Assembly (NCBI GenBank): GCA_044892525.1
Contig: CM097886.1
Span: 16,554,001-16,618,000 of the forward strand
Length of the DNA stretch: 64,000 nt
Direction: 5' to 3'
From: Schmidtea polychroa
Taxonomy: Eukaryota
The stretch's first letter is position 1. Each line of letters opens with the position of its first letter. The translations under genes were made by a program, and so were the position numbers. Below, piece after piece: positions 23,960 to 59,326 of the stretch. The notes beneath the pieces are model-generated. The model did not search any database, was not told the origin of the DNA, and saw only the letters and a program-made list of their open reading frames with translations.

Positions 23960-24604
23960 ATTGTTTAAAAAACTTAAAAACTTATAACAATAAATAAATA
24001 CTTACATTTTCGTCCTTTCGAAAGAAATTTTCCAGCATCAGAACCAGCAGAAGTATTTATTACATTTCCATCTAAAAGCATAATAANNNNNNNNNNNNNN
24101 NNNNNNNNNNNNNNNNNNNNNNNNNNNNNNNNNNNNNNNNNNNNNNNNNNNNNNNNNNNNNNNNNNNNNNNNNNNNNNNNNNNNNNNNNNNNNNNNNNNN
24201 NNNNNNNNNNNNNNNNNNNNNACTTATGAAAAGAAGATTTATTTATGATGATTTTGAAAAGAAGATTTATGAAAAGAAGATTTATTTATTTATTTATGAT
24301 GATTTTGAAAAGAAGATTTATTAAATATGATGATTTTGAACATTATAATTAATAACTTTTATATATTATTTATGAAAATAAAATCTATTTTAGAAAATGA
24401 ATTATTTATTTATGAAAATGAATTAAATTATTTATGAAAACGAATTAAATTATATATTTTATAATATTTTTTATAATATTTTTTATAAGATACTATTTAA
24501 AAGACAATTTTGAATAATATCTTACGAAAAATATCTTAAACTTTAAAAATGATTATTATCTTAATATTTTTTAAACATTTTATGATAAAAATATTTTCAT
24601 AGGT

Positions 24605-26963: not shown

Positions 26964-28559
26964 TGTTGGGCTAGAACTGATTTCTAGACCCAAAGTTAGG
27001 AATGGGACGAAATGTGTCAGTACACAACACGCATACCCAGCATTAAGTTTACTTAAATAAAAATATATAAAACACCAAGTAAACAATGATAATAGAGAGA
27101 TAATATACCCAAAAATAAAACATCTGAATTAAAAATAAAATAAAACACGAGCAAGAAGTATTACACGAAAACTTACTCAAATATAACCAAAAGACATAAA
27201 ACAACAAAAAACAAATTCGAATAAAGGCAATTAGTAAAAATTAAAAAAGAAAATTAAAGAAAATCTTCATAAAATCTTACGTAAAGAAAATTATATCGAT
27301 ATTTTGAATAAAAATCCAGAACAATTCATAAAAATGGCGAAATCCATCATGACGGCCAAACGACCCAATAAAATTTATAAAAAATAAATATTTTAGTTTA
27401 AAAAATAAATATTTTAGAAAAGAAATCATAAAAAACAATTTAAAAATAAGAAATAGATTAAATTTAGCATGGAATGTTCTGGAAATGCTGAAATCCATCA
27501 TGGAGGCAAATTTAATAAAAAATAATTCGAAAATAAAATTTCAAAAATAAAAACAAAAATTCTTACTGAAAAATCGCCATTAAAATCGATAAAAATTAAA
27601 AATCGAATGTTCGAGAATTAAAATAATTCGAATTTGTTTTACTGCATCAATGCACGCATGTATACTTACACGTCAAACAGAGGCTATATAAACTAACACA
27701 TTTCGTCACTTTTTAAGCAAGGAAAATATGCTAATGCTTACTCTTATGCCAAATTTTTGGGTTTTGATTTTTTCTGAGATTGTAGGTAAGAACGATTTCA
27801 TTGTGAATTATAAATTATTATTATTGAAACCTTGTTTTCATTATTTCTTTCTAACTATAGAAATGTAGGTTTGAGTGAGATCGTCGGTTATCATTGATTT
27901 TGAAGCGAGATCCCAGCCAACCCTGCACCTATGCACTTTATCATCGATGAGTACACAGTTCACAATGATTGCAGGCCACTGCCTGGCACGCACTTATCAA
28001 TATTATTGGTTTCCTTTTGTTCGGTCATCGGAGGTCGGCCACTTCATGGTTCTACCATGGAGTTGTGTCGATAAAACCCCTCCGCTATGGCTCCATATAT
28101 TTATTTATCGGTCGACAGCGATGTTTCGACTCCACACAACAGTAAGGTTTGTCGTAGTGGTCACAGTGGGGCCGCGAAAGCAAACACTCTTCCCGACTTT
28201 CAATGCATGAATAATTTACATAGTTAAAATCTACATCCAAAATCATCACAATACAATACACTAAGGTTAATAAACAGAGTAGATCTCAGACCTAAATTAA
28301 TCACAACTCTACAATTCACAATTAATGTAGACGGTTAAATATCATCAAGAACCAACTCTACCTATACGTTTGTCGAATCTAGATTTATAAATGTCTTAAA
28401 TAAATTTTCTAGTAATAGTTTAAAGTAAAGATTGTTTAAAAATGAGTGATTTAGTAGTGATAGTATTCATAAAGGTGTTCGACATGCGCATCAGCAAGAC
28501 TTGGATTTTAAATTGAATAGACTCTAAACTAACTATAAAAATTCAAATCGTAAACCCAT

Positions 28560-29230
28560 AACAGTATAAATTATCCTCTCAATTTCATAAAAATGTGAAT
28601 TATACTTATAGATTTAATTTCTTCAAAATATAAATTATGATTAGTTATAAAGGTATAAATTATAAATTTAATTTCTTGAAATTATAAATTACAAATTTGT
28701 ATTGACGATGAAAATTATAAATTATAACTCTAAGTTAATTATAAAAGTATAAATTATAATCTTAACTTCATAAAAATATAAATTATAAAATTATATTAGC
28801 TTTGGAAATATAAACTATAAATTGAACTTCACCAAATATAAATTATAAACTTAAAAGTATAAATTATAAAATTATATGGGCTCTAAAATATAAACTATAA
28901 ATTTAACTTCATAAAAATATAAATTATAAAATTATATTAGCTTTAAAATATAAACTATAAATTTAACTTCATAAAAATATAAATTATAAAATTATATTAG
29001 CTTTAAAATATAAACTATAAATTTAACTTAACTTCATAAAATATAAATTATAAACTCAAAAGTATAAATTATAAAATTATATTAGCTTTAAAAACATAAA
29101 CTATAAATTTAATTTCATAAAAATATAAACTTATATTGGCTGAAAGACTATAAATTATAATCTTAATTTGGTCATAAAAGTATAAAATATAAACTACGTT
29201 AGCGATAAAAATATAATCTATAAAAAGTTG
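28560..29230. repeat. AT-rich TATAAATTATAAAA satellite inside the LTR (also ~44825-45495)
   Basis: Recurring tataaattataaaattatattagctttaaaatataaac units with a period of ~60 bp. Confidence 0.85.
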
Positions 29231-29239
29231 TAAATATTT

Positions 29240-30260
29240 TATAAATACCCCCCCAAGTTACGTAATGGTCGAAACAAATGTCCAGATTCATAATCTAACT
29301 TATATATGTATATTTGAAACTTATAAAAGTATAACTTACCTTTTTCGTGAGTACCCCCCTCAAACTATACATTAGTCGAGAACAATATATATAGCAATAA
29401 ATTAACTTATATATGTGCAGTTATCAAACTTAATAATTCCTCAGATCACCTAACCATTAATTATTGTCTAAATACATTAATACATTATCTTTACGATATA
29501 AATTTGGAAAATTTTGATAAATGACCCCCCTTAATTCATATAACCATTAACCACTACCTGATACACTAATTTAGACTATTTAATATATATGCTTAACTTA
29601 GATTACCTTTAAAATTATAGTTGAAAAATTTTCATCAAAGACCCCCACAAACCATATAGTCATCAACTACCACCTAAATATACTAAATTAGCTTATCTTA
29701 ATATACATTTAATTTATATTATATTTAAAAATATAAATTGTAAATTTTTATGAATGACCCCCTCAGAATCATACAGTCACTACCCATTACCTAAGCATAC
29801 TAAATTAACTTATTTTAATATATATTTAACTATCAGTATATTTAAAATTCTAAATTGGAAATTTTCATAACTGACCCCCTCAAAATTATACATTCATTGT
29901 CCATTACTTAAATATACTAAATTGACTCATTTTTAATATATATTTAACTTATATTATATTTAAAAATGTAAATTGTAAATGTTCACACATGACCCCCCCC
30001 CCCCCTCAAACTTATACATACTAAATTGGCTTATTTTAATATATATTTAACTTACATTATAATAAAAAATATAAGTGGTAAAATTTCCTAAATGACCCCC
30101 CTCAAATTATATATTTATCTAAATTTACACTAAGATAGACTACTATTATATATATATGTATATGTGTGTGTGTATATGTGTATGTGTATATATATGTATA
30201 TATTCATCTTATATTTGATTTTAAAATGATAACTCTTAAAATTCCTAAATGACCCCCAAG
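29240..30260. repeat. Degenerate ~105-160-bp tandem array marked by ATGACCCCCCTCAAA inside the LTR (also ~45505-46520)
   Basis: C-tract motif recurs near 29247, 29352, 29521, 29641, 29755, 29875, 29989, 30092 and 30250, with shared atactaaatt...ttatttttaatatatatttaac context. Confidence 0.85.
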
Positions 30261-30961
30261 CTATATACCCGTGGTAATTTCATAAAGATATCAAGGTACA
30301 TTCGCCGTTTATCATTATTGTTATTTTAACATTACTGCTACTATCATTAGTATTACTATTACATTTTATTGATATCATTGATTTTATTTTCCCCAGTAAC
30401 CCCACTAAACTGATTATATTATTAAAGTAATTATTATTTCTTAAAAATAAAATTTTAAACAAAATTATCGATTTTGGGATTCCCCTATCTCTAAATTTAG
30501 TCTCGATGGCCCTATCTTCCAATAAAATTACGGAAAATCACGAAAATCTATTTTTAGTAACACCCCTCCCCCCTGAAAACGACATCAATATTATTAATTT
30601 AAATTATATCCATATATAGGTATGTGTGTATATGTATATGTATGTATATATATATGTGTGTGTGTGTATATATATATATAGGTGTGTGTGTATGTACATA
30701 CAGATTTATAAAGCAACCTTATAAAAATACGATAACCTTCCCCCTCAAGACCCCTGTTATGTGATGGTCACAACCCCCTTAAGGTGATGGAGCGAGGTTA
30801 GAGTAGTTTACTGAAGTAATTTAGTAGAATCATTTATTGATTTATTAGAATTATTGGATTTATTTTTAACTAAATCAAAAGAGACTAAATTTATTTTTAA
30901 CTAGATCAAAAAAAGGAAAAAGAAAAACAAAGACTAAGTTTATTGATTTCGATCATCAACT

Positions 30962-31427
30962 TTATTCATATAATTGTTTCTTTGAATCATAGTTATACCA
31001 AGGTCCTTCGAGCACGGTTGATGGACCATCCCAATGAAATACATTTCCTGGAGTTGGAAGACTTCTGGGTAATTCCTTATTTTCTGCTTCGTTCCTTTTG
31101 GTTCAATGACTTACATATTGATTTGACGTAATATTGTTGGATGGCCAACTATATTCCTTGCATCTCTTTTTGAGTAGTCATTGTCAGATAATTCCGCCAG
31201 GAAGATTAGTTGGTGGAACTGACCTTGGGGCAATCAAACCTTCGTACCTCACTGAATTATTATCAACTCGATTGCTAAGGAAATTAATGAAGTTAATTAA
31301 TTAAATTAAGGAAGTTAATTACAATTTTCTCATTGGTGTTGTCAAACGATCTTTGCTCATTCGAGATGTCATAATACATTATTGATCAATAGTAATTGTT
31401 CGGAGATTCGGCCGACTGCTGATATTC
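30962..31427 (-). pseudogene. Antisense spliced ORF inside the 5' LTR (48-nt intron 31322-31275), interrupted by stops
   Basis: ATG at 31372: MTSRMSKDRLTTPMRK|FNRVDNNSVRYEGLIAPRSVPPTNLPGGII*Q*LLKKRCKEYSWPSNNITSNQYVSH*TKRNEAENKELPRSLPTPGNVFHWDGPSTVLEGPWYNYDSKKQLYE*. An upstream 54-nt GT..AG intron is possible at 31481-31428. Confidence 0.55.
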
Positions 31428-32414
31428 CTGAAATATTATGAAATTTTAGGATATAAATGCTTAAAATTTTAATTTATTTACATTATTATATCAAAATTAA
31501 CTAAAATCATATATTTATTCAAAATTTGTTATTTAACATTAATTATAATTACTATAATAAAACAACGAAAATTTAAATAATGTTAAATAACTTTAACAAA
31601 ACAAAAAGTAATAATGAAATCAAAATTCCATTACTTTATTTAAATTATTAGTTACCAACTTGTTCTAGTATTTTAACATAATGAATTCAAGTATATTACG
31701 GAGTTAGTTTGGTCATTTGAGGAATATTATAAATTGAAAATTTAAGTAGATTAGAATTATTTACTCTTCATAAGAACTTTTATGATTGTAATGAATCTAA
31801 ACTTCATATATTAATATTACCCATAATTTACAAGTGATATTTGGATTATGTTAAAATAGGTTGTAAGTTAACTTAACTAAATTGAAATTCTCTTTTGATC
31901 AGGTTATCGTGGGGAATGCATGTTATCTTTATCATTTCTATTGTTTCAGTTTATTAAGTTTTTTTTTTATTTTCTAATTAAATTCATTAGTCTCAAAAAT
32001 TTCTTGAGGTTTGTTTAATAAACTATGGTTATGTTTCACTTAATTTATATTCAAACATTTTAGATGTGGTGTTGTATGAACAGGCTTTAATAGAGTAATG
32101 TATGATTCCTGATGACTTATGATCGTTTGAGGATAGAAAGTTTGTATAGGCATAGTTGAGGAAGTGATTATAATAAGGGACCTGCGTAAATCGGACATAC
32201 ATCTTCTAACGATAGTCCGTGAACCCATTAGAGTGCTCGACAATTACAGTGCAAGTAGTGCGCTCACTTTTTGCGAGTACTCACCCTCTTGATACAGTAC
32301 CAACGTTGATCGTTCAACGGGTATCAAGCGGTAAACAATGTTGTATTCTGGGTTACGCTGGAAACAGCACTAAAGAACAAAATATTTGATCATCAGTAAC
32401 CCACCATACAAATT

Positions 32415-32432
32415 TGGGGGCTCAGCCGGGAT
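32415..32432 (+). other. Primer-binding site, tRNA-Pro-like
   Basis: TGGGGGCTCAGCCGGGAT, 16/18 identical to the canonical tRNA-Pro PBS TGGGGGCTCGTCCGGGAT, 8 nt after the LTR end. Confidence 0.85.
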
Positions 32433-33307
32433 CTTAAACTTTCTTGGTAAAGGAACCTGTAAATAGACGGGAATACATAGCGTTTTTTTGATCAGGAAAT
32501 GAAATGCTTTATGCAAGAGTAAGAAAGATTGTTTTCTCAAATAAATAAACATGATGTGTGAATATGCGTGTATGATCAAAATGAATGTTGAATGTTGTAC
32601 ATGATGAATAAAAAGTTTCAAATTATGTAAATATAGAAAATCGATGAAACTAGATATGAGAATAATGCATGAGCGTTCCGTGTTGATGGGATAGAATGTT
32701 GATGGGTAAGAAATGAAAAAAAAAAAAAAAAAAAAAATCAAAAATAATAAAAATTGTAAATATAAACAACTAATACTTTGTAAATATAAGAAAATAATAA
32801 AAAACTCAAAAATAGGGAAAAGGGGGGATAGAAGATAACGGTATATAGAAAAAGGGGATAAAGCATAAAACAGTGAATTGCGAAATAGAAATAGATAGGT
32901 GATGCAATTAATTAAAAATAGGGGGAAGATGTAAAAATAAGTTAAAGATTAAAGGGTTATATTGAGTACTTGATCAAATGACTAAAATTAATGACACGCT
33001 GGGATCAAAAGGGTTACGTAGACTAAGATAATAAACTAGAGGGAACGAATAAGAATGCGCGGAACATCATTTAATGGATTGGGAGCCTAAACTAACAGGG
33101 TAAAACAGCTATTGAACATACTTAATTTGAATAAGGAAATAAATGGGTAGAGGTAAGCTAATTAAAGGGGAATAAGAACACTTAATAAAATTCTGAATTA
33201 ATAAAGTATAACTTGATGGAATTAACCGGCTACATTATAAAGAAACTTGAAAATTCGTAAATTTAACTAACAACTCACTACAAAGATTGAATTGAAAAGC
33301 AGAGCAG

Positions 33308-33719
33308 TTGGCAAACATCCAAGAAGGACTGATCTTAAAACCAAGACCAGTTGATGATGAATTGTGTATAATGACGAGAATTGCTACACCAAATGTGGAA
33401 TTAACTACTCAAAGAGTATATCAGATTCAGAATTTACGTTTAGATAAGGCCAAATTTAACATCAAATGGCAAGAATTAAAGATAAAAATTTAAACGGTTG
33501 AAGATGCGATAAGAGAGGCGATCGATAATGAGTTCAAATGTTGTGTGTGTAGAAGCAATGAGATAAAAATAATGATGGTACATTGCGGACATCGATGTTA
33601 TTACCAAGATTATGCATTGAAACTGAAACCATTGTAATGTATGTGATGCAAACGTGAGAGAAAGAGTAGTAGTATACATCCCTAAGGGAGATGTAGAAAA
33701 ATTAAAGATGATGAAATGA
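33308..33719 (+). pseudogene. Decayed coiled-coil + IAP/MDM2-type C3HC4 RING finger ORF
   Basis: ...KIKI*TVEDAIREAIDNEFKCCVCRSNEIKIMMVHCGHRCY[Y]QD[Y]ALKLK, a +1 shift, then CNVCDANVRERVVVYIP. Spacing fits C-x2-C-x11-C-G-H-x3-C-x2-C...C-x2-C, with the 5th and 6th ligands as TAC/TAT (Tyr). Confidence 0.75.
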
Positions 33720-34425: not shown

Positions 34426-34990
34426 ACAAAAACCCGGATACCCACACCGAGTATTGGGTGCATTTTTTTTTGATTGGCTAGCGGGACTTGATACAAAAAC
34501 CCGGAAGGGTAGCGAGCGAGAGAGACCCAGTTACCTACACCGAGTATTAAGGAGCCCAGTGAAACGGTTGTGAGATGCGGGTCAACCGGTAAAGGACTCG
34601 TACTCAACAGGCAACCAAGATTGGACCAGTTGTGAGGCGGGAGACCGAGAGTCAACTGCATATCCAATTTCCTTTTATCTTCACTAGTCGGGAGATCTGG
34701 TTCATCACTTTTGAGAATCAAGATCGAGGCGATTAGGCATTTCCGTGTTTTTTAAATCCTGATAGATAGGATGTTTTTTCTTCGTGATTATTGCTAGCAG
34801 GGGTCGGTACAAAACCCGGATGCCCACACCGAGTACCGATAGGCCCAGTGAAACGGCGATGAGATTAGGGTTACCGGTATTAAACTCTTTTCAATAGGCG
34901 GCCAAGAATTGAGCTAGTTGTGAGGCCTCAGCAGATTAATAATTTGAGTAGGAGGAACCTTAAATTTTTAATTGGTCCGAAAGTCAACTG
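34426..34990. repeat. Degenerate direct repeats in the element's 5' leader
   Basis: acaaaa(a)cccgga...cacaccgagta at 34426, 34494 and 34809. The block cccagtgaaacgg...agttgtgaggc...gtcaactg occurs at ~34556 and ~34845. Confidence 0.8.
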
Positions 34991-35110
34991 TCAACTCAAT
35001 TTAATCGCGGTAGGGACGATAGTAGGTGTAAAAACTGAAGGCGTCTGGGGGTTGAAGAAACCTCATTTAGGGCATTTGAAACCGATCAGGGACCGAAGAC
35101 CGCGAATACG

Positions 35111-35480
35111 GCGTAAAGGTGTAAAAGCCCAGGCGTCTAGGAGTCGTAAAAGACTTCAAAGATTAAAAGTATAATTAAACCGGCCGGAAGCCGATGCCGA
35201 CGCGGAGGTCTAATAAACCGAAGCGTTGATGGTTGATAGTGAATTATATGGCGTAACGGTGTAAGAACCCAGGCGTCTAGGAGTCGTAAAAGACTTCAAA
35301 GTTTAAAATATGATTAAACCGGCCGGAAGCCGATGCCGACGCGGAGGTTTAATAAACCGAAGCGTTGATGGTTGATAGTGAATTATATGGCGTAATGGTG
35401 TTAAAGCCCAGGCGTCTAGGAGTCGTAAAAGACTTCATGAGATTAAAATGAGTTGATTAAACCGGCCAGAGAGCCGATGG
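35111..35480. repeat. 139-bp tandem repeat (2 full copies + 1 partial, with a degenerate tail to ~35600)
   Basis: ggcgtaa.ggtgt..aagcccaggcgtctaggagtcgtaaaagacttca...aaaccggcc...gccgatg starts at 35111, 35250 and 35389. Confidence 0.92.
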
Positions 35481-36052: not shown

Positions 36053-37861
36053 ATGATATGTACTAGGAGTGTTAATTATTTTAGAATAAAGCAAACCATT
36101 CAGAAGGAAATCAATAGAAGCCAAGAATTCAAGAGTAATAAAGAGAAATCAAAAATTCAAAAGAAACCAAGCAAAGAATCAAGAGAATCAAACGAGGATA
36201 GAAGAAAGGTAAACAAAGTCAAATTAAATACCAAGAGGAAAATTAAAGCGTTGGCCAACGAAACACAGTGAAATTCAAAAGAGATTATTAAAGCAAGAAA
36301 AATTGATAATAAAGCCAATCGAACGAGATCGCAGAGCAAAGGAGGCTCTAGTTTATTAGGAAACGCAGGGAGACAAAGAGCCAAGAGAAACAGAAGAATC
36401 AATAAGAAACCAGCGTCAGTGAAAACATTATTTGAATCAGACAGCTTAACCAACGAAAGTGAAAACAGCGACAATATTAAAAGAAACGAATTATATCCGG
36501 TAACTGATATCAAACCAACAGACAAGGAAGATAGTAGTTCAGACATAACAAGTTTGTGTCGAGATATAATGTTAGACGGAAACCAAGTGAACAACCCGAA
36601 TGGGTCAGAGTCGACATACACACCGGAGATAAACCATGTCAACGTCAATGTTGGAGAATTTAGAGAAAGATTTCGAGGAGAACCATTCGATGGGAATATT
36701 AATGAACTAGAAACGTTTATAAAAGAATTCGAGGTATATATTACGATATGTCACTGGCCAGACATAGTCGTACGAGAGCGAATACCATTATATTTAAGAG
36801 GAAGTGCACAAGATGTATATTTAGAGGCAAAGTGTGATGCAACAAAACTAAAAACATGGAAATCAATAAAGAATTTTTTAATAAAAACATTCGGTAGCAA
36901 AAGGGAAGTAAATCGCAAAATGTTGGATTTTCTGCATCGAAAGCAGAAATACAATGAGTCAAACGCACTATATGCATGTGAATTAAGACGACTGGCAAAA
37001 GAAGCATTCGATTCAAATCAAACAGTTCCGGAAGACAAGATAATAGCCGTATTCGTAGAGGGATTGAAAAGAAAGGACATACGAGCAACAGTGGGGTGCC
37101 GAGCACCAGACACGCTCGAGGAAGCATTAAAAATCGCTAATAAATGCGAAAACTACTTGACTCCAGTACAAGTAGCAGCAATGGCAGCAGTACCAATAGC
37201 TACAACACCAACAACGACAACCGAAATTAATCAAACCAACAATGGAAATCTAGGAATGAATCAATTTATCTCAGAATCGCAACAGTTCTTCAAGGCGCCA
37301 AAAACGACAAATCCAGATAACAGAGGTAATATTCAATTTTACACTAATAATTTCAGGAACAACGAGAACAATAATCGGAAGTGTAACATATGTCAACGAC
37401 TAGGACATTGGAGCAACGAGTGTTATAAGACAAGGATATGCCAAAATTGCGGTAAAAGGGGTCACACAGAAAATATATGCCGAGGACCAATGATGTCGAT
37501 GAGAGGAGGAAGGACTAGAACCTGCTACAGTTGCAACCAACTTGGACATGTGGCGAGAGAATGCGCGATGAGGACAAAGCATAATCAACCAAGAGCAAAC
37601 GAGTCAAGTCAAAATATACAAGTCAACATCATGCAGGAAATAGGACAGTTGAAAAAGATGATCCAACGGATACCAGAGGATATCCAAAAACGACCAACAA
37701 GAGAACAAAAAGATCAGCAACGAATCGAAGGGCAGAGACCACTAAACGAAAAAGCCAGAGAAATTCAAAAAGATGGAAAAGCGAGAAACCAACACCGGAA
37801 GAATAAATATGATGAGATTAATGAACAAAGGGGAACCGCACACTGCGGAGCAGTGTGTTAA
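36053..37861 (+). CDS. gag: Retrotransposon Gag with three CCHC zinc knuckles (one in-frame TGA at 36269-36271)
   Basis: Capsid-like FDGNINELETFIKEFE...LYLRGSAQDVY...FVEGLKRKDIR. Knuckles CNICQRLGHWSNEC, CQNCGKRGHTENIC and CYSCNQLGHVAREC. ORFs 36053 and 36419 are in the same frame. Confidence 0.9.
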
Positions 37862-40800
37862 CAAGGAAGGGAGCGATATGACCGTAATCAACGAGACAAA
37901 AGTGATAAAAGAAAATGGGTCACATCAATTGACGGAGCAATTGACAGAACTGAGTAGCGAGGATAAAATAAAAATAATACAAGGGTTCACCAAAGAAGAA
38001 AAAGAAAAGAGACGAAGAAGAGATGAAACAGGGCACGAACCAAAAAGCAACGAGATTGTTACAAAGAATCGAATTCAGAGGGTATTACTACAAAAAATTG
38101 AAAATAGAATTAGAAGAGAAGAACCAAATTTAACGGATGAGCAAGTAAAAGAAAAAGTAAAAGACAACTGGTTCAGGAAAAATGAGTGGTTCGAAAAGAA
38201 AGAACCAAGTAATAGAGCCAATATAAACATGCTGAGACAAATACAGAAGGATCAGACGGACCAGGAAGACGAGAAAAGTGCGGTGAGTAGCCTGAGAAGT
38301 GAATTATTTCAATCAAGTGATGAAAATAATGAACAAGGAACACCTCAAATTAACGAAGAGGGTGAGAGCGACGATATGGAATCACCGATAGAAAATGACG
38401 ATGAGGAAATATTTGAGGAAATTTCCGACACGGTATCGGAAAGAGAACGAAATGAGAGCTATATCAACGAACCAACATACAGAAAATGTATAAAACTGAT
38501 AACTCAAGCATACCAGTGGGAAGGAGGTATATTAACGGCAACATGGAAAGATTTGGCGACGAAATATAAAGGAAAATTGAAAGAAGTTGATCCAGATCAA
38601 TACCAAGTAGGTATTCAACACCCTGAAACTCAGATGCAGATTATTGAATTAAAAGTAACAAATATCGATGAACTGTATAATTGGGTACAGGAAAAGATGG
38701 GAACAAGTCATAAGAATAAACAACTATACGATAATGGTTACAAAGTTAAAATGAGCATACATCTAGTAGATATGATGAGATGGCCAAACGAAGTTAATAT
38801 CTTAATCTTAAAGAAAAACAGAGACAGCGAATCAGTAACGGAAATACTGAGGAAAATCCAACAGATATTCAACAATGAAGTGGAACCAGAAATAGAAAAG
38901 ACTGAACAAAAGATAATGAAGGAAAATCAAATAATCGTAGTAAAACAAGCAATCGATCAAGCGAAGAAATATATTAACAGATTTAGGGAAAGATGGCCGC
39001 AGCTAATGAAACAGTTTGTCAAAGACGTACGGGATACTGAGATTATGGGATTTGAATATAAACGAGCAACGGAGTTGATATCAAAATATGGTGAATACGA
39101 GAGAATCAGATGTGAACAAGAATTACCATGGCCATCCAACAGAAAAGTGACAATAGTAAGAGAATCACTGAAGAATAGTCATTTAAATAAACACGAAGAA
39201 ATGATCAAAACATCACATGTCGAAGACGACATTTTTGGAAAAGGCCGGAGTGGAAAAAATGACAAAGACCATAACGACAAAAATGAGGAAGACGACGGGA
39301 ACCATGAAAGGAACAACATAAATGGGAACTCAAACGAACGAGATAATGAAGAAGACAAGGAGTCAGAAGATGACGACGAAGACTTGAAGGATACTGAGGA
39401 CAACTCAGACCAAAGTGAAGACAACCAACATAATGAAACAGAGAACGACAAACGAAAGTCCCCACTGCATAACATAGTAATGCGGAAGAATCTAAACCAG
39501 TCACTCCTACTACAAATTATCCTAATAATACTAACGTCAATTTGCCTAACAGAAACGAAAAATACGCGAATTACGAGAGGAAATCTGAAAGAAGGCGAAC
39601 TATTCATGATAAAAGTCAGCGGCAACAACGGAAACGCGGTCGGGATATGCATCCAATTGATGGAAGGAACCGGAGTAAGTTGTGATTTTAGAACGATAAC
39701 AAAAGGGAGGATTTTCAATAGTTAAAATGGAGAACCTGAATTATGCGGAGACTACAACATTTGCGAAGACATAACATCAGAAGAAAAAGAATTGGAAAGA
39801 GCTAACGAAACCGGAGTACATGTCGCAATTAAAACTACAATGGAAGGTATCGAAATAATAGATAAAGGAAATTTGCCAACAACGCAAATATGTTTTAGAG
39901 ATGACGAAGACATATGTATAACGGTAGACATGAAACGAGATCGCGAATTTTTTTGGACAAACGTAAAACCAAACACCAACATGGTGGTATGCGCAGGTAC
40001 CCAGGCAATAGTGGTATGTAAAGCAGTTAAAACCGCGCAAATAAAAAGCAGGCCAAAAAGTATGGCTAGTAAAAGATATCAACCAAGGATCAAACCGGCA
40101 ATTAAGAAACCCCAGAAACAATCCCGTACGGGAATGATAAGAGGACAGCACCAAACCAAGAAAAACACAACAGTAATATGGATCAAATATGAGAGACGAG
40201 AAGTACTAGTAAATGTCGAATTCAACAAGAAAAGAGAAGAAGTAATCACGGTCAGAAACCAAGGTGAAGAACCAATAGTAAGAGTATGTGTACTAAACAG
40301 GACAGGAATAGTCGACTGCATAGAAACACTACTTGACAAAGGTGCAGAAGTTAAAATGACAATAGGAGAAAGAAAGGGACGATACCACATATGCGTTCTT
40401 AAAAACGGAAGCGATTTAAGTTCATGCCAAGCAATAACCAGACAACGACCACGGTTGATAAACATACCATTGGCAACCAGAAAACCAAAAGAAGTGGAAA
40501 AGCCAAAAGGAAACGAACATCTAACGGCAGAAGAAACGAAACAGTTATACCAGATGCTCAAGAAAAATAAAACACAGGAGGCAACTACAACAGAAACTAA
40601 AATGATGATGACGACAGGAAAATTCAACAACAAGACACTGATAACCGTTAAAATGATGTGGATCGCTAGCGCAATAATGAGTGCAGTGATAACATCAATA
40701 ATAATCCAATGGATAAGAACCTCCAAAATATGTAAACAAAAACCTAAAGGCAGAAAAAGATGGCCACAAGTGGAGAATTCCGAATATGGTATTCCAACAG

Positions 40801-40988
40801 AAGACCCGAATCCAGAAGAGTACGAAGCGATTGAAGATCCAAGGTCAAGCAGACTATGGACGCAAGAATTACTCAGAATACAAACCCTAGACGATTGGGT
40901 AACCGAATTTGACATATACCGGCTAACGGATGAAAGATATGGGGGAATGCGCACATTGCATTCAGGTCCCCTGGCAACAATGGTATAA
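37773..40988 (+). CDS. Charged/coiled-coil region followed by an internal signal-like segment, a Cys-paired ectodomain, a TM helix and a tail (env-like); one in-frame TAA at 39723-39725
   Basis: ORFs 37773 and 39792 share a frame with a single stop between them. Hydrophobic LLLQIILIILTSICLT, six Cys pairs, six N-x-S/T sequons, TM MMWIASAIMSAVITSIIIQWI, basic RTSKICKQKPKGRKR. Confidence 0.75.
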
Positions 40989-43227
40989 GAAAGTGATGAG
41001 TCGATGTAAATAGTGTGTAGATAAACGTGAGGGTAAAAGTAGTTTAGTAGATTAGCAATATGTTCAAAAAAAAATGTAAAAAAAAAAAAAAAAAAAAAAA
41101 AAAGGTACAAAAAAAAAAGGTACAAAACAAAAAGGTACAAAAAAAATGGGTATGATAACTACGTATTATAAATAAATCAGAGAAACGAGGATCAAGTATA
41201 TCAAACGAGGATACCACATGTTGTTGAATTGGGAAATCAACCACTAGTAAACATTAATCAGACATAAATAGTAGAAATTGATACAAGTACAACGATAAAC
41301 CAACCAAGTTAGTCAGCAGGATCAATGTGAAGAACACAATGTGAATTAATGACAAATGACAAACCATACCCAAGAATAACGGTTACGTAATTAGAATGCG
41401 TTAATGGGGAGCATCAATAGAAACTCGATATATATAACAAGAATGAAAGAGCAATAACAAATAATCGCACAATTAAAATACAATAACAAACAGTTGATAA
41501 GCCAAATAAAATGGGAGGCAGGAGAAATCGGGAGATTACACGAAAACCATCAGTATGATGATATAACGAGTTAAGTTGAGTGGATAACTGGCCTACCAGG
41601 AACTGGGGAACCGGACTCAGCGGGAGACATAAAAGAAGGGGAAAGTAGCCCTGTAAACAAACAAAATTATAGCCAAAGTAGAAGCTCCGAGATTAAACGC
41701 TATCATGGCAGAATGGCGAGAGAAAGTGGAGAGAAGTGGAGGAACAAAACTATTAACTATGAGCTGATAAGAAAATATTAGGTCAAGTCCGATGAATTCG
41801 AGGAGAGACTATTGTGTGCGGACAAAGATTATTAATAAGAGCACGTCAGACCCTATGAGGATGTAGACTATGACATGGAGGTACCACACGACTTGTAACA
41901 AGAAAAGCAGTAGCTAAAGAGAGAACCACAGCAAGCATCAGCCACATCCCAGATGACAATAATAATAAAAATCTTAGAAGAAAAAAAAAAAAAAGCAGCA
42001 AATAATGATGACTGTCAACAAATGTCCGAGCAACTATGAAACAAAGACACTCGAAGAAATAAAGGAAAGGGTAAATAACGCAGTCAAAGAAAAGCCAATT
42101 ACTCAAGATGAAATAATAAAAACATTGAGAGAGATATAGATGGAAATAATAACAACTATGAACAAAATCCCCATGAACCATGAGACAATAACCAAAACTT
42201 TAGAAGGAATAAAAAGGAGAATATCAACTACCTTCGACGAAGACTTCGCTTACTAAAATGTCCTAATAAAGATAGGGAAAAGAGTAATGATGACAGTCAA
42301 CAAAACCCTACACACTAAATCAAATAACCTCGAAGAGGAACTCAACTCGACTGATACAATCCAACTAATGAAAACAGTGAGCATGTGACGAGAGATAAAG
42401 AAAGAAGTGGCAATCAAAACAAGGTCAACAGAGAAAAAATAAATAAATAAAAAAAAAAAAATAAATAAATAAATTTGAATGTAAAGAAAACCCCGAATCC
42501 ATAACAGTACTGATCCTGTTAGCAGCGAATCTCATGATAAATAACAATACTGAACTTGATAGCCTTTAAACCTACTCAAATCCATAGAAGTACAAAAACT
42601 CAAGTTGAAAGAACAATTCCGAAGCATTCGCATTCTAATAGAAGAACCAATACCCAGAGACCAAATCTATCAAATCTATCAAATCTATCTTCTAAAATCT
42701 TCAAATCTAGAGCCGTCATCGAGATGAGATCCCAAACAACCGAGTGTTTAAATCCTGATATAAACCGACAATGATCCTGATATAATCTGACAACGATCTT
42801 GAGTTGATTGAAAATGTTCTTATTATGTGTTGACAATGATCCTGATTCGATTGACAATGATCTGAAAATGATCTAAATTTGATTTAACAATGATCCTGAC
42901 ATGATTCGACAATGATATGATTTGACTATTATTGTGATTTGATGCCAATATTATATATTACTTTGATATTATTTGAGCATAACAATTTGATTAAATTTTG
43001 TGTGGACCGACCGTGGTCTTCTTTCTCTTCAACTTTAAACCAATCTGTAGCATGTAGCGTATCAGTAGAAACTTTTTATGTATGTGGGTATTGAGGTCAC
43101 GACCCTGTAGCTCGTGGACCCAATTACATGTAGGCACTTGTAATACAGTGCAACCAATTCTGTCTAATTATATCTTGAACTTTGATTAAATTGCGGGTCG
43201 CAATTTTATGGGCCCCCGAGTGTTTTA

Positions 43228-46200
43228 TGTTGGGCTAGAACTGATTTCTAGACCCAAAGTTAGGAATGGGACGAAATGTGTCAGTACACAACACGCATAC
43301 CCAGCATTAAGTTTACTTAAATAAAAATATATAAAACACCAAGTAAACAATGATAATAGAGAGATAATATACCCAAAAATAAAACATCTGAATTAAAAAT
43401 AAAATAAAACACGAGCAAGAAGTATTACACGAAAACTTACTCAAATATAACCAAAAGACATAAAACAACAAAAAACAAATTCGAATAAAGGCAATTAGTA
43501 AAAATTAAAAAAGAAAATTAAAGAAAATCTTCATAAAATCTTACGTAAAGAAAATTATATCGATATTTTGAATAAAAATCCAGAACAATTCATAAAAATG
43601 GCGAAATCCATCATGACGGCCAAACGACCCAATAAAATTTATAAAAAATAAATATTTTAGTTTAAAAAATAAATATTTTAGAAAAGAAATCATAAAAAAC
43701 AATTTAAAAATAAGAAATAGATTAAATTTAGCATGGAATGTTCTGGAAATGCTGAAATCCATCATGGAGGCAAATTTAATAAAAAATAATTCGAAAATAA
43801 AATTTCAAAAATAAAAACAAAAATTCTTACTGAAAAATCGCCATTAAAATCGATAAAAATTAAAAATCGAATGTTCGAGAATTAAAATAATTCGAATTTG
43901 TTTTACTGCATCAATGCACGCATGTATACTTACACGTCAAACAGAGGCTATATAAACTAACACATTTCGTCACTTTTTAAGCAAGGAAAATATGCTAATG
44001 CTTACTCTTATGCCAAATTTTTGGGTTTTGATTTTTTCTGAGATTGTAGGTAAGAACGATTTCATTGTGAATTATAAATTATTATTATTGAAACCTTGTT
44101 TTCATTATTTCTTTCTAACTATAGAAATGTAGGTTTGAGTGAGATCGTCGGTTATCATTGATTTTGAAGCGAGATCCCAGCCAACCCTGCACCTATGCAC
44201 TTTATCATCGATGAGTACACAGTTCACAATGATTGCAGGCCACTGCCTGGCACGCACTTATCAATATTATTGGTTTCCTTTTGTTCGGTCATCGGAGGTC
44301 GGCCACTTCATGGTTCTACCATGGAGTTGTGTCGATAAAACCCCTCCGCTATGGCTCCATATATTTATTTATCGGTCGACAGCGATGTTTCGACTCCACA
44401 CAACAGTAAGGTTTGTCGTAGTGGTCACAGTGGGGCCGCGAAAGCAAACACTCTTCCCGACTTTCAATGCATGAATAATTTACATAGTTAAAATCTACAT
44501 CCAAAATCATCACAATACAATACACTAAGGTTAATAAACAGAGTAGATCTCAGACCTAAATTAATCACAACTCTACAATTCACAATTAATGTAGACGGTT
44601 AAATATCATCAAGAACCAACTCTACCTATACGTTTGTCGAATCTAGATTTATAAATGTCTTAAATAAATTTTCTAGTAATAGTTTAAAGTAAAGATTGTT
44701 TAAAAATGATTGATTTAGTAGTGATAGTATTCATAAAGGTGTTCGACATGCGCATCAGCAAGACTTGGATTTTAAATTGAATAGACTCTAAACTAACTAT
44801 AAAAATTCAAATCGTAAACCCATAACAGTATAAATTATCCTCTCAATTTCATAAAAATGTGAATTATACTTATAGATTTAATTTCTTCAAAATATAAATT
44901 ATGATTAGTTATAAAGGTATAAATTATAAATTTAATTTCTTGAAATTATAAATTACAAATTTGTATTGACGATGAAAATTATAAATTATAACTCTAAGTT
45001 AATTATAAAAGTATAAATTATAATCTTAACTTCATAAAAATATAAATTATAAAATTATATTAGCTTTGGAAATATAAACTATAAATTGAACTTCACCAAA
45101 TATAAATTATAAACTTAAAAGTATAAATTATAAAATTATATGGGCTCTAAAATATAAACTATAAATTTAACTTCATAAAAATATAAATTATAAAATTATA
45201 TTAGCTTTAAAATATAAACTATAAATTTAACTTCATAAAAATATAAATTATAAAATTATATTAGCTTTAAAATATAAACTATAAATTTAACTTAACTTCA
45301 TAAAATATAAATTATAAACTCAAAAGTATAAATTATAAAATTATATTAGCTTTAAAAACATAAACTATAAATTTAATTTCATAAAAATATAAACTTATAT
45401 TGGCTGAAAGACTATAAATTATAATCTTAATTTGGTCATAAAAGTATAAAATATAAACTACGTTAGCGATAAAAATATAATCTATAAAAAGTTGTAAATA
45501 TTTTATAAATACCCCCCCAAGTTACGTAATGGTCGAAACAAATGTCCAGATTCATAATCTAACTTATATATGTATATTTGAAACTTATAAAAGTATAACT
45601 TACCTTTTTCGTGAGTACCCCCCTCAAACTATACATTAGTCGAGAACAATATATATAGCAATAAATTAACTTATATATGTGCAGTTATCAAACTTAATAA
45701 TTCCTCAGATCACCTAACCATTAATTATTGTCTAAATACATTAATACATTATCTTTACGATATAAATTTGGAAAATTTTGATAAATGACCCCCCTTAATT
45801 CATATAACCATTAACCACTACCTGATACACTAATTTAGACTATTTAATATATATGCTTAACTTAGATTACCTTTAAAATTATAGTTGAAAAATTTTCATC
45901 AAAGACCCCCACAAACCATATAGTCATCAACTACCACCTAAATATACTAAATTAGCTTATCTTAATATACATTTAATTTATATTATATTTAAAAATATAA
46001 ATTGTAAATTTTTATGAATGACCCCCTCAGAATCATACAGTCACTACCCATTACCTAAGCATACTAAATTAACTTATTTTAATATATATTTAACTATCAG
46101 TATATTTAAAATTCTAAATTGGAAATTTTCATAACTGACCCCCTCAAAATTATACATTCATTGTCCATTACTTAAATATACTAAATTGACTCATTTTTAA

Positions 46201-48668
46201 TATATATTTAACTTATATTATATTTAAAAATGTAAATTGTAAATGTTCACACATGACCCCCCCCCCCTCAAACTTATACATACTAAATTGGCTTATTTTA
46301 ATATATATTTAACTTACATTATAATAAAAAATATAAGTGGTAAAATTTCCTAAATGACCCCCCTCAAATTATATATTTATCTAAATTTACACTAAGATAG
46401 ACTACTATTATATATATATGTATATGTGTGTGTGTATATGTGTATGTGTATATATATGTATATATTCATCTTATATTTGATTTTAAAATGATAACTCTTA
46501 AAATTCCTAAATGACCCCCAAGCTATATACCCGTGGTAATTTCATAAAGATATCAAGGTACATTCGCCGTTTATCATTATTGTTATTTTAACATTACTGC
46601 TACTATCATTAGTATTACTATTACATTTTATTGATATCATTGATTTTATTTTCCCCAGTAACCCCACTAAACTGATTATATTATTAAAGTAATTATTATT
46701 TCTTAAAAATAAAATTTTAAACAAAATTATCGATTTTGGGATTCCCCTATCTCTAAATTTAGTCTCGATGGCCCTATCTTCCAATAAAATTACGGAAAAT
46801 CACGAAAATCTATTTTTAGTAACACCCCTCCCCCCTGAAAACGACATCAATATTATTAATTTAAATTATATCCATATATAGGTATGTGTGTATATGTATA
46901 TGTATGTATATATATATGTGTGTGTGTGTATATATATATATAGGTGTGTGTGTATGTACATACAGATTTATAAAGCAACCTTATAAAAATACGATAACCT
47001 TCCCCCTCAAGACCCCTGTTATGTGATGGTCACAACCCCCTTAAGGTGATGGAGCGAGGTTAGAGTAGTTTACTGAAGTAATTTAGTAGAATCATTTATT
47101 GATTTATTAGAATTATTGGATTTATTTTTAACTAAATCAAAAGAGACTAAATTTATTTTTAACTAGATCAAAAAAAGGAAAAAGAAAAACAAAGACTAAG
47201 TTTATTGATTTCGATCATCAACTTTATTCATATAATTGTTTCTTTGAATCATAGTTATACCAAGGTCCTTCGAGCACGGTTGATGGACCATCCCAATGAA
47301 ATACATTTCCTGGAGTTGGAAGACTTCTGGGTAATTCCTTATTTTCTGCTTCGTTCCTTTTGGTTCAATGACTTACATATTGATTTGACGTAATATTGTT
47401 GGATGGCCAACTATATTCCTTGCATCTCTTTTTGAGTAGTCATTGTCAGATAATTCCGCCAGGAAGATTAGTTGGTGGAACTGACCTTGGGGCAATCAAA
47501 CCTTCGTACCTCACTGAATTATTATCAACTCGATTGCTAAGGAAATTAATGAAGTTAATTAATTAAATTAAGGAAGTTAATTACAATTTTCTCATTGGTG
47601 TTGTCAAACGATCTTTGCTCATTCGAGATGTCATAATACATTATTGATCAATAGTAATTGTTCGGAGATTCGGCCGACTGCTGATATTCCTGAAATATTA
47701 TGAAATTTTAGGATATAAATGCTTAAAATTTTAATTTATTTACATTATTATATCAAAATTAACTAAAATCATATATTTATTCAAAATTTGTTATTTAACA
47801 TTAATTATAATTACTATAATAAAACAACGAAAATTTAAATAATGTTAAATAACTTTAACAAAACAAAAAGTAATAATGAAATCAAAATTCCATTACTTTA
47901 TTTAAATTATTAGTTACCAACTTGTTCTAGTATTTTAACATAATGAATTCAAGTATATTACGGAGTTAGTTTGGTCATTTGAGGAATATTATAAATTGAA
48001 AATTTAAGTAGATTAGAATTATTTACTCTTCATAAGAACTTTTATGATTGTAATGAATCTAAACTTCATATATTAATATTACCCATAATTTACAAGTGAT
48101 ATTTGGATTATGTTAAAATAGGTTGTAAGTTAACTTAACTAAATTGAAATTCTCTTTTGATCAGGTTATCGTGGGGAATGCATGTTATCTTTATCATTTC
48201 TATTGTTTCAGTTTATTAAGTTTTTTTTTTATTTTCTAATTAAATTCATTAGTCTCAAAAATTTCTTGAGGTTTGTTTAATAAACTATGGTTATGTTTCA
48301 CTTAATTTATATTCAAACATTTTAGATGTGGTGTTGTATGAACAGGCTTTAATAGAGTAATGTATGATTCCTGATGACTTATGATCGTTTGAGGATAGAA
48401 AGTTTGTATAGGCATAGTTGAGGAAGTGATTATAATAAGGGACCTGCGTAAATCGGACATACATCTTCTAACGATAGTCCGTGAACCCATTAGAGTGCTC
48501 GACAATTACAGTGCAAGTAGTGCGCTCACTTTTTGCGAGTACTCACCCTCTTGATACAGTACCAACGTTGATCGTTCAACGGGTATCAAGCGGTAAACAA
48601 TGTTGTATTCTGGGTTACGCTGGAAACAGCACTAAAGAACAAAATATTTGATCATCAGTAACCCACCA
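43228..48668 (+). repeat. 3' LTR (5441 bp)
   Basis: Near-identical to 26964-32406; starts TGTTGGG, ends CCCACCA, followed by TSD GCTG. Confidence 0.96.
47224..47689 (-). pseudogene. Second copy of the LTR antisense spliced ORF
   Basis: Same sequence as 30962-31427 at offset 16262. Confidence 0.55.
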
Positions 48669-48672
48669 GCTG

Positions 48673-50279
48673 TCAAAACTTTATCATCTTTACCTTTGAC
48701 CGAATCAGAATTTCAGGGTACAATAATAACTGCAAAGGGGATTTTTCCTTATGATGCCGCAACTTCATTAGAGGTTTTACATAACACTCGTCAGTTACCT
48801 CCTATTTGGAAAGATGTGACTCCCGCTGAATATGAGAGAGCTCAGCGAATTTGGGTTGAAACTTCATGTACTTCACTTTTCGATTACATGATGGTTTATT
48901 TAAAACTTGATGTTTTCCTTTTAGCCGATTTTTTCCAGCAATTTAACCGACTAGAGCCATTAAATTTCTTAGGGATTCCAGGTATGTCTTGGAATTCAGC
49001 CTTATTAACTTTAAACTCTCCAATTGAGCTCCTCACCGATATGGAGATGTATAACTTTTTCGAGGGCGGTATCCGTGGCGGACTAACTTTTGTAAATAAA
49101 CATTATGTAAAAAAAGACCCGGATACCGCATTGCTTTACATAGATATAAATAATTTATACGGTTGGGCTTTAAGTCAACCATTACCTTGCAGTGACTTTG
49201 AATGGGTTACTGATGATAATTTATTAAATAATATAATTGTTGAATGCACAACGGTAGATTTAGATCTGCTTGATTATGGTTATACCATAGAAGTGGATTT
49301 AGAAATACCGACGTCAATTCACGACAAACTGGACGATCTTCCCGTTGCCGCTGAAAAGATGTGTGTACCGGGTTCGAAAATAGAGAACCTGTTGCTTACA
49401 CACAGCCCCAAGAGGAACTATGTTCTTCATTGGAGGCTTCTACAAATATTTATTAAATTAGGTGTTAAAATATCAAAAACACATAGAGCAATTAAATTTA
49501 AACAAGATAAAATTTTCAAAAATTATATTAACACAAATACGGCGTTACGAGCAGCGTCGACAAATAAACTCGATAAAAATTTTTATAAATTATTAAACAA
49601 CAGTCTTTACGGCAAGACTGTTGAAAATCTTAAAAAACGTATTAATTTACGTCTGTGTAATTCTTCACAGAGATTATTAACATTCTGTTCGAAACCGACT
49701 TTTCGTAAATCCACGAAAATCGATGATGACTTGATTTCGGTTTTATTGAGGAAGGACATAGTGTGTTTGAATAGACCTAGTTACGTTGGTCAAACCGTAC
49801 TTGATTTATCCAAACTCAGGATGTACCAGCTGCAGTATGAAGAGTTGCAAAAATATCGCGACGAATTCAACTGCGAAATTAATATCGTTGCTGGAGACAC
49901 AGATTCCTTCTTCTTGGAAATTAAACATTGTAGTCTTAACATTCTTTTACCTGCGATGATTAGAGATCAATTATTAGATACTTCGAATTATGACCCAAAT
50001 CATCCTTTATATAGTAGGAACCTTGATTCTGTCATTGGTAAATTCAAAGACGAGAATAAAGGGTTATTATATAAAGATTGGGTGTTCTTGAGACCTAAAT
50101 GTTACATTTTGATGGGTGTTGAGGAAAGTATGAAGGCTAAGGGGATAAGTATGAAAGATACTGGACTAACACATCAGTCGTATCTAGATTGTTATTTAAA
50201 TGATAAAATATACACAGTCCCTCAGTTTAGAATAACGTCAAAAAATCACCAACTTTTTAGTATTAAAAATAATCGATGA
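48673..50279 (+). pseudogene. polB: Protein-primed family B DNA polymerase, 3' part (C-terminally truncated at the TIR)
   Basis: KGIFPY, ExoIII Y...DVFLLAD, motif A YIDINNLYG, motif B KLLNNSLYGK, motif C GDTDS, LRPKCY, KAKGI. The TGA at 50277-50279 lies inside the right TIR. Confidence 0.93.
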
Positions 50280-54658: not shown

Positions 54659-55335
54659 CTTAAAATAAAATGGATGGAAAATAGAATTAATAATTTGTTA
54701 TGGCTATAAAATATTATTGACCAAGGTCTTTCATTTCTGATTCTCATTCTAGATAATTATATTTTATTTTGTTTAAAACATCATCTATGATAATTATGTT
54801 ATTACGCTAGCTTGATAACAATTTGATATACAGTGGGAAATGCATCAAGAGACTCACATCCTTTCATTGAAACATTATTATTATTATTAGTTACCATTTA
54901 CAACAAATCAGAATTTTTAGGATTTTTGAAAAAAATTATTAAAAAAATTATTTAAAATATTAAATAAATAAAAAAAGAGTAAAAAAAAAGAAATTAAGAT
55001 AAAAAAAGAAAATGGGGAAGAATAGAGATTTTACTATTAACTTCTAATTTTAATAATAAACATGATATTTTTATTCCAATATTATCTGAAAATCGATATT
55101 TTTCTATTGAATGATACAAAATTTATGTTATTTATTTAAAAATTGTTATAGTATGTAAAATATTAGAAACCTATTTTACATTTAACANNNNNNNNNNNNN
55201 NNNNNNNNNNNNNNNNNNNNNNNNNNNNNNNNNNNNNNNNNNNNNNNNNNNNNNNNNNNNNNNNNNNNNNNNNNNNNNNNNNNNNNNNNNNNNNNNNNNN
55301 NNNNNNNNNNNNNNNNNNNNNNNNNNNNNNNNNNN

Positions 55336-59161: not shown

Positions 59162-59283
59162 TATAGCGATAATTTACTATAGTAAATTATCGCTATATAG
59201 TTTTTTTTTGAAAGTCTGGATTTCCCAGATGGGGCATTTTATATTTTAGTATTCACAATTCCTAATTGTGAACACTAAAATAT
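59162..59283. other. Intronic inverted-repeat cluster (36-bp perfect palindrome + 20-bp hairpin)
   Basis: TATAGCGATAATTTACTATAGTAAATTATCGCTATA at 59162-59197. Stem 59241-59260 / 59264-59283 with a 3-nt loop and one mismatch. Confidence 0.9.
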
Positions 59284-59326
59284 TAACAAAAATAACTGTA
59301 CATTACAATTATTATCAAAAACTTAC

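Follow-up and report, generated by a model that had tools for sequence, protein, structure and literature searches.

What is a putative membrane protein doing in a retroelement that has no polymerase? The question is raised by a 64,000-nucleotide stretch of the Schmidtea polychroa genome (assembly GCA_044892525.1, contig CM097886.1, positions 16,554,001 to 16,618,000 of the forward strand; hereafter the window), which contains a 21.7-kb element whose long terminal repeats (LTRs) are 99.945% identical. A profile and open reading frame (ORF) scan of this element matched Ty3_capsid and zf-CCHC and found no pol domains. Downstream of Gag, at window positions 39480-40988, lies a block that an earlier, sequence-only reading had described as an unrecognised, env-like type I membrane protein with six Cys-paired beta modules and a Tyr-motif tail, serving cell-to-cell spread, particle targeting or host signalling. 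The role that we favour, with a probability of roughly 45%, is that of an accessory attachment or targeting surface protein that partners a separately encoded fusogen.

The block is the end of a Gag polyprotein

A genome search with the 420 residues that follow the stop codon of the window copy, in which the best 100 of 539 candidates were scored, recovered 55 copies that lie in a frame starting with Gag and free of stops over 1,565-1,580 codons (hand count). The order in these natural copies is Gag, linker, a domain of unknown function, an acidic linker, a hydrophobic segment, the ectodomain, a transmembrane (TM) segment and the tail. Given that the frame is open from Gag through the block, the latter makes up the final ~500 codons of a single Gag-fusion frame of 1,572 codons, that is, the end of a polyprotein rather than a gene of its own. 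The window copy is broken twice, by a frameshift in Gag near positions 37,760-37,780 and by an in-frame TAA (39723-39725) that interrupts the first ectodomain module. The free-standing ORF starting at Met 39480, as envisaged in the sequence-only reading, therefore has to be abandoned: the frame is already open from position 37746, and this Met is replaced in 19/19 copies read from the autonomous partner family described below.

The family comprises about 115-120 copies, as judged by the matches to its junction pattern (114) and to its ectodomain pattern (120), and is still amplifying, as its LTRs are 99.7-99.9% identical. Several copies stand in tandem with a common LTR, in pairs ~16 kb apart (for instance, C2:16295523 and 16311524). 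A search for a closer autonomous parent among the matches listed turned up seven odd copies, none of which was autonomous.

The family derives from a Burro1-like element by internal deletion

The partner family was found through two patterns at contig ends with 55 and 142 exact genome matches, the former belonging to an older, mostly broken subfamily. We had considered these ends as signs of a cassette that swaps ectodomains, an idea that was dropped once they proved to represent a homologous family. One natural partner copy spans 34 kb, with 4.3-kb LTRs and a single frameshift. The partner polyprotein of 4,791 codons carries zf-CCHC, MATH, a Monjiviricetes fusion glycoprotein (PF24664, E 1e-68, between gag and pol), protease, reverse transcriptase (RT), RNase H, integrase (IN) and ankyrin repeats, followed by the block, and TRAF and BIR-RING ORFs are located 3' of the block. 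In 65 of the 85 scored partner copies, 4,735-4,846 codons are open, one of these 65 having stops within the match (hand count). The last accessory ORF of the partner, with a signal-like N-terminus, a short Cys-rich part, a coiled-coil-like middle and a TM segment, looks like a third membrane protein and has no real Pfam match.

The proteins of the two families are colinear, with 55-76% identity. The derivative aligns to partner residues 1-951, continues with a scrap of ~25 residues from the MATH domain and then resumes with the C-terminal block, such that the ubiquitin-like, BCL2-like, fusogen, protease, RT, RNase H, integrase and ankyrin parts are missing at the junction. The BCL2-like match was seen in one sister family, where it is weak (E 0.03), and was not found in the partner piece tested. 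The LTR ends (22 nt compared at the start, 13 nt at the end) and the primer-binding site are also identical between the families. The colinear alignment, the MATH remnant and the shared LTR ends and primer site identify the window family as a pol-less, fusogen-less internal-deletion derivative of a Burro1-like element, whose mobility, judging from these shared sequences, most likely depends on the partner acting in trans. The ~220-residue domain that follows Gag has no Pfam match, and purifying selection has maintained it in the derivative.

Because the fusogen of the autonomous partner is encoded elsewhere and has been deleted from the window family, the block is not the Env of this element. 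Nor does it match the PF24664 profile. The env-like position 3' of pol, together with the signal, the sequons and the TM segment, might still suggest a stand-alone env gene whose product, made from its own start, mediates entry or fusion. We regard this as hardly credible, since the block is in frame with Gag or Gag-Pol, the start Met is missing from the partner copies and a separate class III fusogen exists. Furthermore, the furin motif RX[KR]R is not found in the block of the window copy, of an open copy or of the partner, and there is no fusion peptide, which, in line with the sequence-only reading, does not fit an Env of the errantivirus, baculovirus F or retroviral class I type.

The ectodomain consists of three Cys-stapled modules

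The anatomy described from the letters stood up to inspection. The hydrophobic segment LLLQIILIILTSICLT is present at 39504-39551, and the 12 Cys form six close pairs with spacings of x10, x5, x7, x8, x9 and x10, a pattern that was reproduced in 0 of 200,000 random placements of Cys. The pairs group into three two-pair modules, and all 12 Cys are common to the partner family at 59% overall identity, along with the signal region IILTSICLT/ETKN (the slash marks the putative cleavage site), EYGIP and EEYE. The six luminal sequons are present, only NET keeping its position in the partner, and one more lies in the basic n-region. The Thr-rich stalk (33% Thr across 27 residues), the TM segment and the tail with its basic stop-transfer and EYGIP-x7-EYEAI were likewise confirmed, and the hydropathy profile has no other strong peak from the signal to the TM segment. 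The sequence-only reading was right in seeing the block as a Cys-stapled membrane protein of no recognised kind, predicted to be all-beta and of type I, that belongs to an LTR element. Its internal signal would be cut at CLT/E, in line with the (-3,-1) rule for signal-peptidase sites. The acidic linker upstream ends in a basic patch and an IV-x-R motif, which resembles, at one residue off, a motif recurring at other domain borders and might be a protease site.

What had been overlooked is that the tail ends in a class I PDZ-type motif, ATMV, in 97 of 98 copies. Searches of the window family with consensus patterns found no immunoreceptor tyrosine-based activation motif (ITAM; YxxL/I-x6-12-YxxL/I) in the tail, where the first Tyr belongs to YGIP, and no WSxWS, PxxP box1 or TRAF-binding consensus.

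An AlphaFold2 model built from an alignment of 13 sequences has a mean predicted local distance difference test score (pLDDT) of 41, with module 3 reaching about 60-87 and comprising eight strands. This module matches generic immunoglobulin (Ig)-like sandwiches (best Z 9.4, root-mean-square deviation (rmsd) 2.2, 77 residues aligned), and among 48,161 chains compared, the 11 at Z 8 or more included no prominent family. Module 3 is Ig-like with moderate confidence, and modules 1 and 2 were not modelled confidently. Modelled alone, from an alignment to which modules 1 and 3 and domains of the sister families contributed, module 2 reached a pLDDT of 51 and a Z of at most 6.0, a model compatible with an Ig/fibronectin type III (FN3)-like fold. 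Pairwise scores relate module 1 to module 3 (z 6.3, 0/400 shuffles) and module 2 to module 3 (z 4.4, 0/400 shuffles), the Cys pairs of the latter two occupying the same alignment columns, whereas modules 1 and 2 compared directly give a z of only 1.5. Overall, the six Cys pairs most likely staple three homologous Ig/FN3-like beta-sandwiches, each pair probably bridging a beta-hairpin, as the positions of the strands in the model suggest. No recognised family was found for the block, and the fold is probably of a known type. Pfam fn3 (PF00041) matched neither the modules nor the sister ectodomains at E up to 10. We discarded Foldseek matches to viral proteins with E under 0.001, which came from the unfolded part (rmsd 24-33), and an ankyrin-like appearance of module 3, which folds as a beta-sandwich and lacks the ankyrin-like residues in the partner.

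Homologues of the block were not found in word-indexed searches of proteins of 276-879 and 880-2,510 residues, in viral and metagenome contigs or among PDB sequences. A phmmer search of 1.84 billion representatives yielded seven matches, all rejected as sums of weak ankyrin, Ig or Calx-beta repeats or as an unannotated frame, and a search with the alignment of sister ectodomains found no outside homologue either. Since planarian retroelement proteins seem to be missing from the collection searched, the absence of matches does not demonstrate novelty. A candidate link to PF12248 (farnesoic acid O-methyltransferase domain) was not supported, given an ESM score of 0.76, below the 0.9 mark, the lack of a Pfam match and a genome search that was blank, as were its controls.

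The same slot is filled in two further fusogen-bearing families

A genome search with PF24664, in which 68 of 2,581 candidates were scored and 12 stretches examined, uncovered two further families with a membrane protein in the same slot. The stretches that extend beyond the integrase encode a signal, a beta-rich ectodomain of ~270-280 residues, a Thr/Ser stalk, a TM segment and a short tail of about 15-25 residues. Nearest to the sister ectodomain are FN3 proteins (ESM Atlas 0.92; 161 shared features and a recognition score of 1619, both below the marks of the tool). The sister tails end in PPSYYETRL and YEETWV, such that all four lineages end in S/T-x-V/L (ATMV, ATLV, ETRL and ETWV); by composition this is expected at ~2% each, the lineages being related and hence not independent. 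In PPSYYETRL, a PPxY motif is joined to the PDZ-type end. One sister family has a single ORF of 3,334 codons that runs from Gag through ubiquitin-like, weak BCL2, fusogen, protease, RT, RNase H and integrase parts to a signal, three FN3-like domains and a TM segment, and no accessory ORF of at least 200 codons was seen 3' of it.

The frame is maintained while the residues vary

To define breaks, we compared 16 derivative copies (the window copy and 15 others, 13 of which were chosen for long open frames or identity spread) and counted a stop or frameshift as family-wide if present in at least half of them. The four remnants of the partner accessory ORFs contain nine stops and five frameshifts over ~433 codons, whereas the block has no family-wide break in 496 codons, with 10-16 expected (Fisher, p 2e-5 for all breaks and 1e-3 for stops alone; some of the frameshifts called close to the ends of alignments may be artefactual, and the accessory ORFs could already have been dead when pol was lost). 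After the signal, the figures are zero in 478 codons with 10-15 expected. Every signalling cargo gene was either lost or left to decay in the derivative while the block stayed open, which ties the block to Gag rather than to the TRAF/IAP cargo.

Between the families, the ratio of nonsynonymous to synonymous substitution rates (dN/dS; one open copy each, two transition weightings) lies at 0.20-0.30 for the three modules, at 0.10-0.12 for the C-terminal 27 residues, which are 85% identical to the partner, and at 0.05-0.08 for the capsid. However, the dead accessory ORFs also give ~0.2 against the partner, suggesting that these values mostly record the autonomous past. Within the derivative family, 98 of the best 100 copies were analysed for the block and 70 for the Gag half; all were picked as best protein matches, which biases the sample toward intact copies. 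Block variants found in at least four rows number 71 nonsynonymous to 19 synonymous (singletons 134:58; p 0.12), compared with 86:48 in the Gag half (singletons 176:50; p 0.007). Amino-acid changes that arose recently in the block of the derivative are not suppressed. None of the 12 ectodomain Cys shows a shared change, with three singletons in 98 copies, a comparison of low power. The frame is thus kept over a long time, with residues that have recently drifted or diversified.

This combination invites the explanation that the frame is kept open because translation has to reach the natural stop, for RNA stability or packaging in cis, or because the signal alone is needed as a membrane anchor of Gag, the ectodomain being a passenger in the derivative and functional in the helper. 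Such a passenger would account for the excess of shared nonsynonymous variants without purifying selection on residues, for dead ORFs that match the block in dN/dS and for the continued transposition of copies with breaks. We nevertheless consider it improbable, given the 12 Cys without shared change, the nearly invariant ATMV end and the unbroken 478 codons; moreover, a host-facing surface protein would be expected to show the same nonsynonymous excess.

A putative attachment or targeting protein

We favour attachment or targeting because the block is made one-to-one with Gag and the fusogen, because the slot recurs in three autonomous-type families, because the tails carry Yxx-hydrophobic, PDZ-type and, in one family, PPxY motifs and because the derivative retained the block with Gag as the signalling cargo decayed. 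The partner polyprotein would thread the endoplasmic reticulum membrane in the manner of a flavivirus or alphavirus polyprotein, placing Gag in the cytosol, the fusogen in the lumen, the protease-RT-IN-ankyrin part in the cytosol, the ectodomain in the lumen and the tail in the cytosol. Such alternation is suggested by the hydropathy peaks along the partner, which run signal and TM (fusogen), then signal and TM (block), apart from a weak extra peak of 1.5 in the protease and another in module 2. The internal signal would translocate the three disulfide-stapled domains, signal peptidase would free the N-terminus of the ectodomain and the TM segment would stop transfer, whereupon the Yxx-hydrophobic and PDZ-type motifs may direct the protein towards one particular membrane or cell contact. 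On the particle, the block protein would serve in attachment or targeting, with fusion performed by the adjacent class III fusogen; the derivative, retaining Gag and the block in frame, would borrow enzymes and fusogen from the 34-kb helper.

Several observations weigh against this proposal. The searches described above found no homologue outside the genome from which a function could be transferred, and modules 1 and 2 are unfolded in the AlphaFold2 model (pLDDT under 30). The relationship to the sister FN3-like ectodomain is only hinted at by the sequences, since module 2 against the first sister domain gives a z of 3.3 (1/400 shuffles) as the best of nine cross comparisons, and hhalign assigns the two ectodomain types a probability of 0.4%. 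The shared variants of the block differ from those of the Gag half (p 0.025), recent purifying selection on block residues is not evident, and the block is broken in 21 of 98 copies. Finally, the stop of the window copy is common to four copies, at least one other of which has its own target-site duplication (TSD) and flanks, so the block protein is dispensable in cis.

The shape of the protein also raises the possibility of a receptor mimic, a captured cytokine-receptor-like protein that signals or soaks up a host ligand together with the TRAF, IAP, BCL2-like and ankyrin cargo of Burro and need not be on particles. With three FN3-like domains, a TM segment, Tyr motifs and a PDZ ligand, it has the anatomy expected of cytokine or adhesion receptors. 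The low-confidence model of module 2 lists domains of IFNAR2, IFNLR1 and IL-20R at Z 4.6-5.5, values that lie among generic sandwiches and inside the background. Further support comes from the tail being the best-kept part (dN/dS about 0.1), from the TRAF and BIR-RING ORFs of the partner and from the ETRL tail of the rabies glycoprotein, which, according to PMC6520365, controls survival via PDZ partners. We consider this mimicry rather unlikely, as the window-family tail lacks the ITAM, box1, WSxWS and TRAF-binding motifs, the sister tails are only some 15-25 residues long and the block outlasted the TRAF/IAP/RING cargo in the derivative.

It is also conceivable that the block occupies or removes the receptor of Burro particles and thereby blocks re-entry. 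A fusogen-less family that retains a putative binding protein resembles the receptor-interference envs Fv4 and enJSRV, and the YEAI/YEVV motif is of an endocytic type. Such interference is, however, very unlikely: the family is still amplifying, so that selection acts on the element and not on one domesticated locus, and no receptor is known.

A more far-reaching reading is conceivable. An entire clade among the planarian gypsy elements might consist of enveloped viruses with two-protein entry, the window family being a satellite with its own Gag and a diversifying attachment protein, a tentative extension that we judge possible and less likely than not to hold. One polyprotein would then combine a chuvirus-type fusogen between gag and pol with a captured three-FN3 attachment protein after the integrase, and the satellite could steer helper-made particles to other cells, for example, stem cells or the germ line.

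Relation to known systems

Two-protein entry is familiar from herpesviruses (gB with the Ig-fold gD) and paramyxoviruses (F with G, H or HN), and K1 of Kaposi's sarcoma-associated herpesvirus, a variable protein rich in Cys, is likewise of type I and has Tyr motifs in its tail. The Burro-like arrangement shares with the entry systems the pairing of a fusogen with a separate non-fusogenic surface protein. The block differs from gD, G/H/HN and K1 in that it shows no sequence or specific fold match to them, lacks an ITAM and originates from a retroelement polyprotein. Rabies virus G is likewise a type I glycoprotein with a class I PDZ end, and the ETRL of the sister family is that of attenuated rabies G (PMC6520365). 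This likeness is an analogy only, since ATMV closes the window tail and the accessory protein, not the fusogen, bears the motif.

Among retroelements, TelKA2n of Adineta vaga is a non-autonomous LTR family that lost most of pol and kept a membrane glycoprotein (PMC5408684). However, TelKA2n has lost part of gag and still encodes, in a separate ORF3, a paramyxovirus-F-like fusogen, whereas the window family kept the full Gag, lost the fusogen and has a non-fusogenic Ig/FN3-like protein fused in frame. The LTR element Anakin carries a chuvirus-type glycoprotein, the broad class to which the PF24664 protein of the partner belongs, but it is a mosquito BEL/Pao element with one glycoprotein, and its abstract reports no second receptor-like protein (PMC7642597).

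The closest relative is Burro1/GYPSM1 (PMC6431247), kinship here being judged by described anatomy and not by sequence alignment. The partner shares with it the long LTRs, the ORF of ~4,790 codons, the three-knuckle Gag, MATH, fusogen, PR-RT-RH-IN (protease, RT, RNase H and integrase) and ankyrin parts and the TRAF and BIR-RING ORFs; the window element shares the long LTRs (5.44 kb) and the Gag with three CCHC knuckles. With its 21.7 kb, the window element differs in lacking the ~4,800-residue ORF, pol and the fusogen, which the partner has. In the section of that source on these elements, env lies between gag and pol, nothing is named after the ankyrin repeats, and neither a post-integrase membrane protein nor a pol-less derivative encoding Gag and a membrane protein is described. 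Partial texts of the literature searched (including PMC6431247, PMC11410931, PMC8532177 and bioRxiv 10.64898/2025.12.11.693146) contain no description of such a Burro protein or derivative, and older Burro accounts or supplements may mark a C-terminal TM region. The block is real and conserved. It encodes a second membrane protein, probably of a common fold, in a giant element that was already known, and both its slot and the satellite family had gone unnoted.

Descriptions of LTR retroelements normally feature a single Env, which makes a second membrane protein unusual. In planarians, Burro elements are both numerous and active, and half of the polyprotein that they encode has no explanation; protection of stem cells by Burro1 has been reported (cited in PMC13465017). 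The recurrence of a receptor-shaped protein in one fixed slot across four lineages suggests a way in which such elements choose cells or membranes. The derivative, which lacks enzymes, fusogen and anti-apoptotic cargo but retains Gag and the block, amounts to a natural deletion experiment on the needs of the element's parasite, and the block provides a defined protein for study in a tractable animal.

Layout of the element and its surroundings

Table 1. Parts of the 21.7-kb LTR element and its polyprotein, with positions in the window.
Feature	Positions	Strand	Remarks
TSD, left	26960-26963	+	GCTG, 4 bp; other copies likewise have 4-bp TSDs
5' LTR	26964-32406	+	5.44 kb, TG...CA
Primer-binding site	32415-32432	+	same as in partner; presumably tRNA-Pro type
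Remnant of partner's upstream RING ORF	33200-33700	+	dead; family-wide two stops, one frameshift
Gag	36272-37861	+	Ty3-type capsid (about 36683-37159), three CCHC knuckles
Domain of unknown function	38460-39122	+	shared with N-terminal half of partner polyprotein (62% identical)
Deletion junction	39123-39197	+	~25-residue MATH-domain remnant
Acidic linker	39198-39479	+	
Internal signal sequence	39480-39551	+	hydropathy, conservation in partner
Ectodomain module 1	39567-39776	+	Cys x10, x5; stop at 39723-39725 common to three other copies
Ectodomain module 2	39807-40028	+	Cys x7, x8; low-confidence beta-sandwich model
Basic linker	40029-40166	+	weakly conserved (40% identical to partner), no furin consensus
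Ectodomain module 3	40167-40439	+	Cys x9, x10; Ig-like beta-sandwich, pLDDT about 60-87
Stalk	40440-40655	+	Thr-rich close to membrane
Transmembrane anchor	40656-40718	+	hydropathy 2.1 over 17 residues
Cytoplasmic tail	40719-40988	+	stop-transfer, YGIP, YEAI (Yxx-hydrophobic), ATMV, stop
Remnants of partner's first accessory ORF and TRAF ORF start	41150-41870	+	dead; family-wide seven stops, two frameshifts
Remnant of partner's last accessory ORF	42495-42743	+	dead; family-wide two frameshifts
3' LTR	43228-48668	+	
TSD, right	48669-48672	+	GCTG

The LTR contains repeat arrays with units of ~60 nt and ~117 nt (window 28550-30120), and the long 5' leader contains three ~140-nt repeats and a pair spaced by 289 nt (35106-35479 and 34525-34871), partly common to the partner; these repeats are possible packaging or promoter elements.

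The element splits a Polinton/Maverick-type frame with endonuclease VII and DNA_pol_B_2 (24575-26974 and 48636-50279, both on the + strand), and Polinton-like DNA lies about 3.5 kb away in one of three other derivative copies checked. Two long frames on the - strand, of 801 (52254-54659) and 1,571 codons (59283-63998), have no Pfam match and are possibly Polinton genes. The remainder of the window includes an innexin exon (2544-2969, +), a homeobox exon read from the sequence (13484-13906, -), a hAT transposase (20150-22069, -) and a GIY-YIG (Penelope-like) frame (56419-57180, +).

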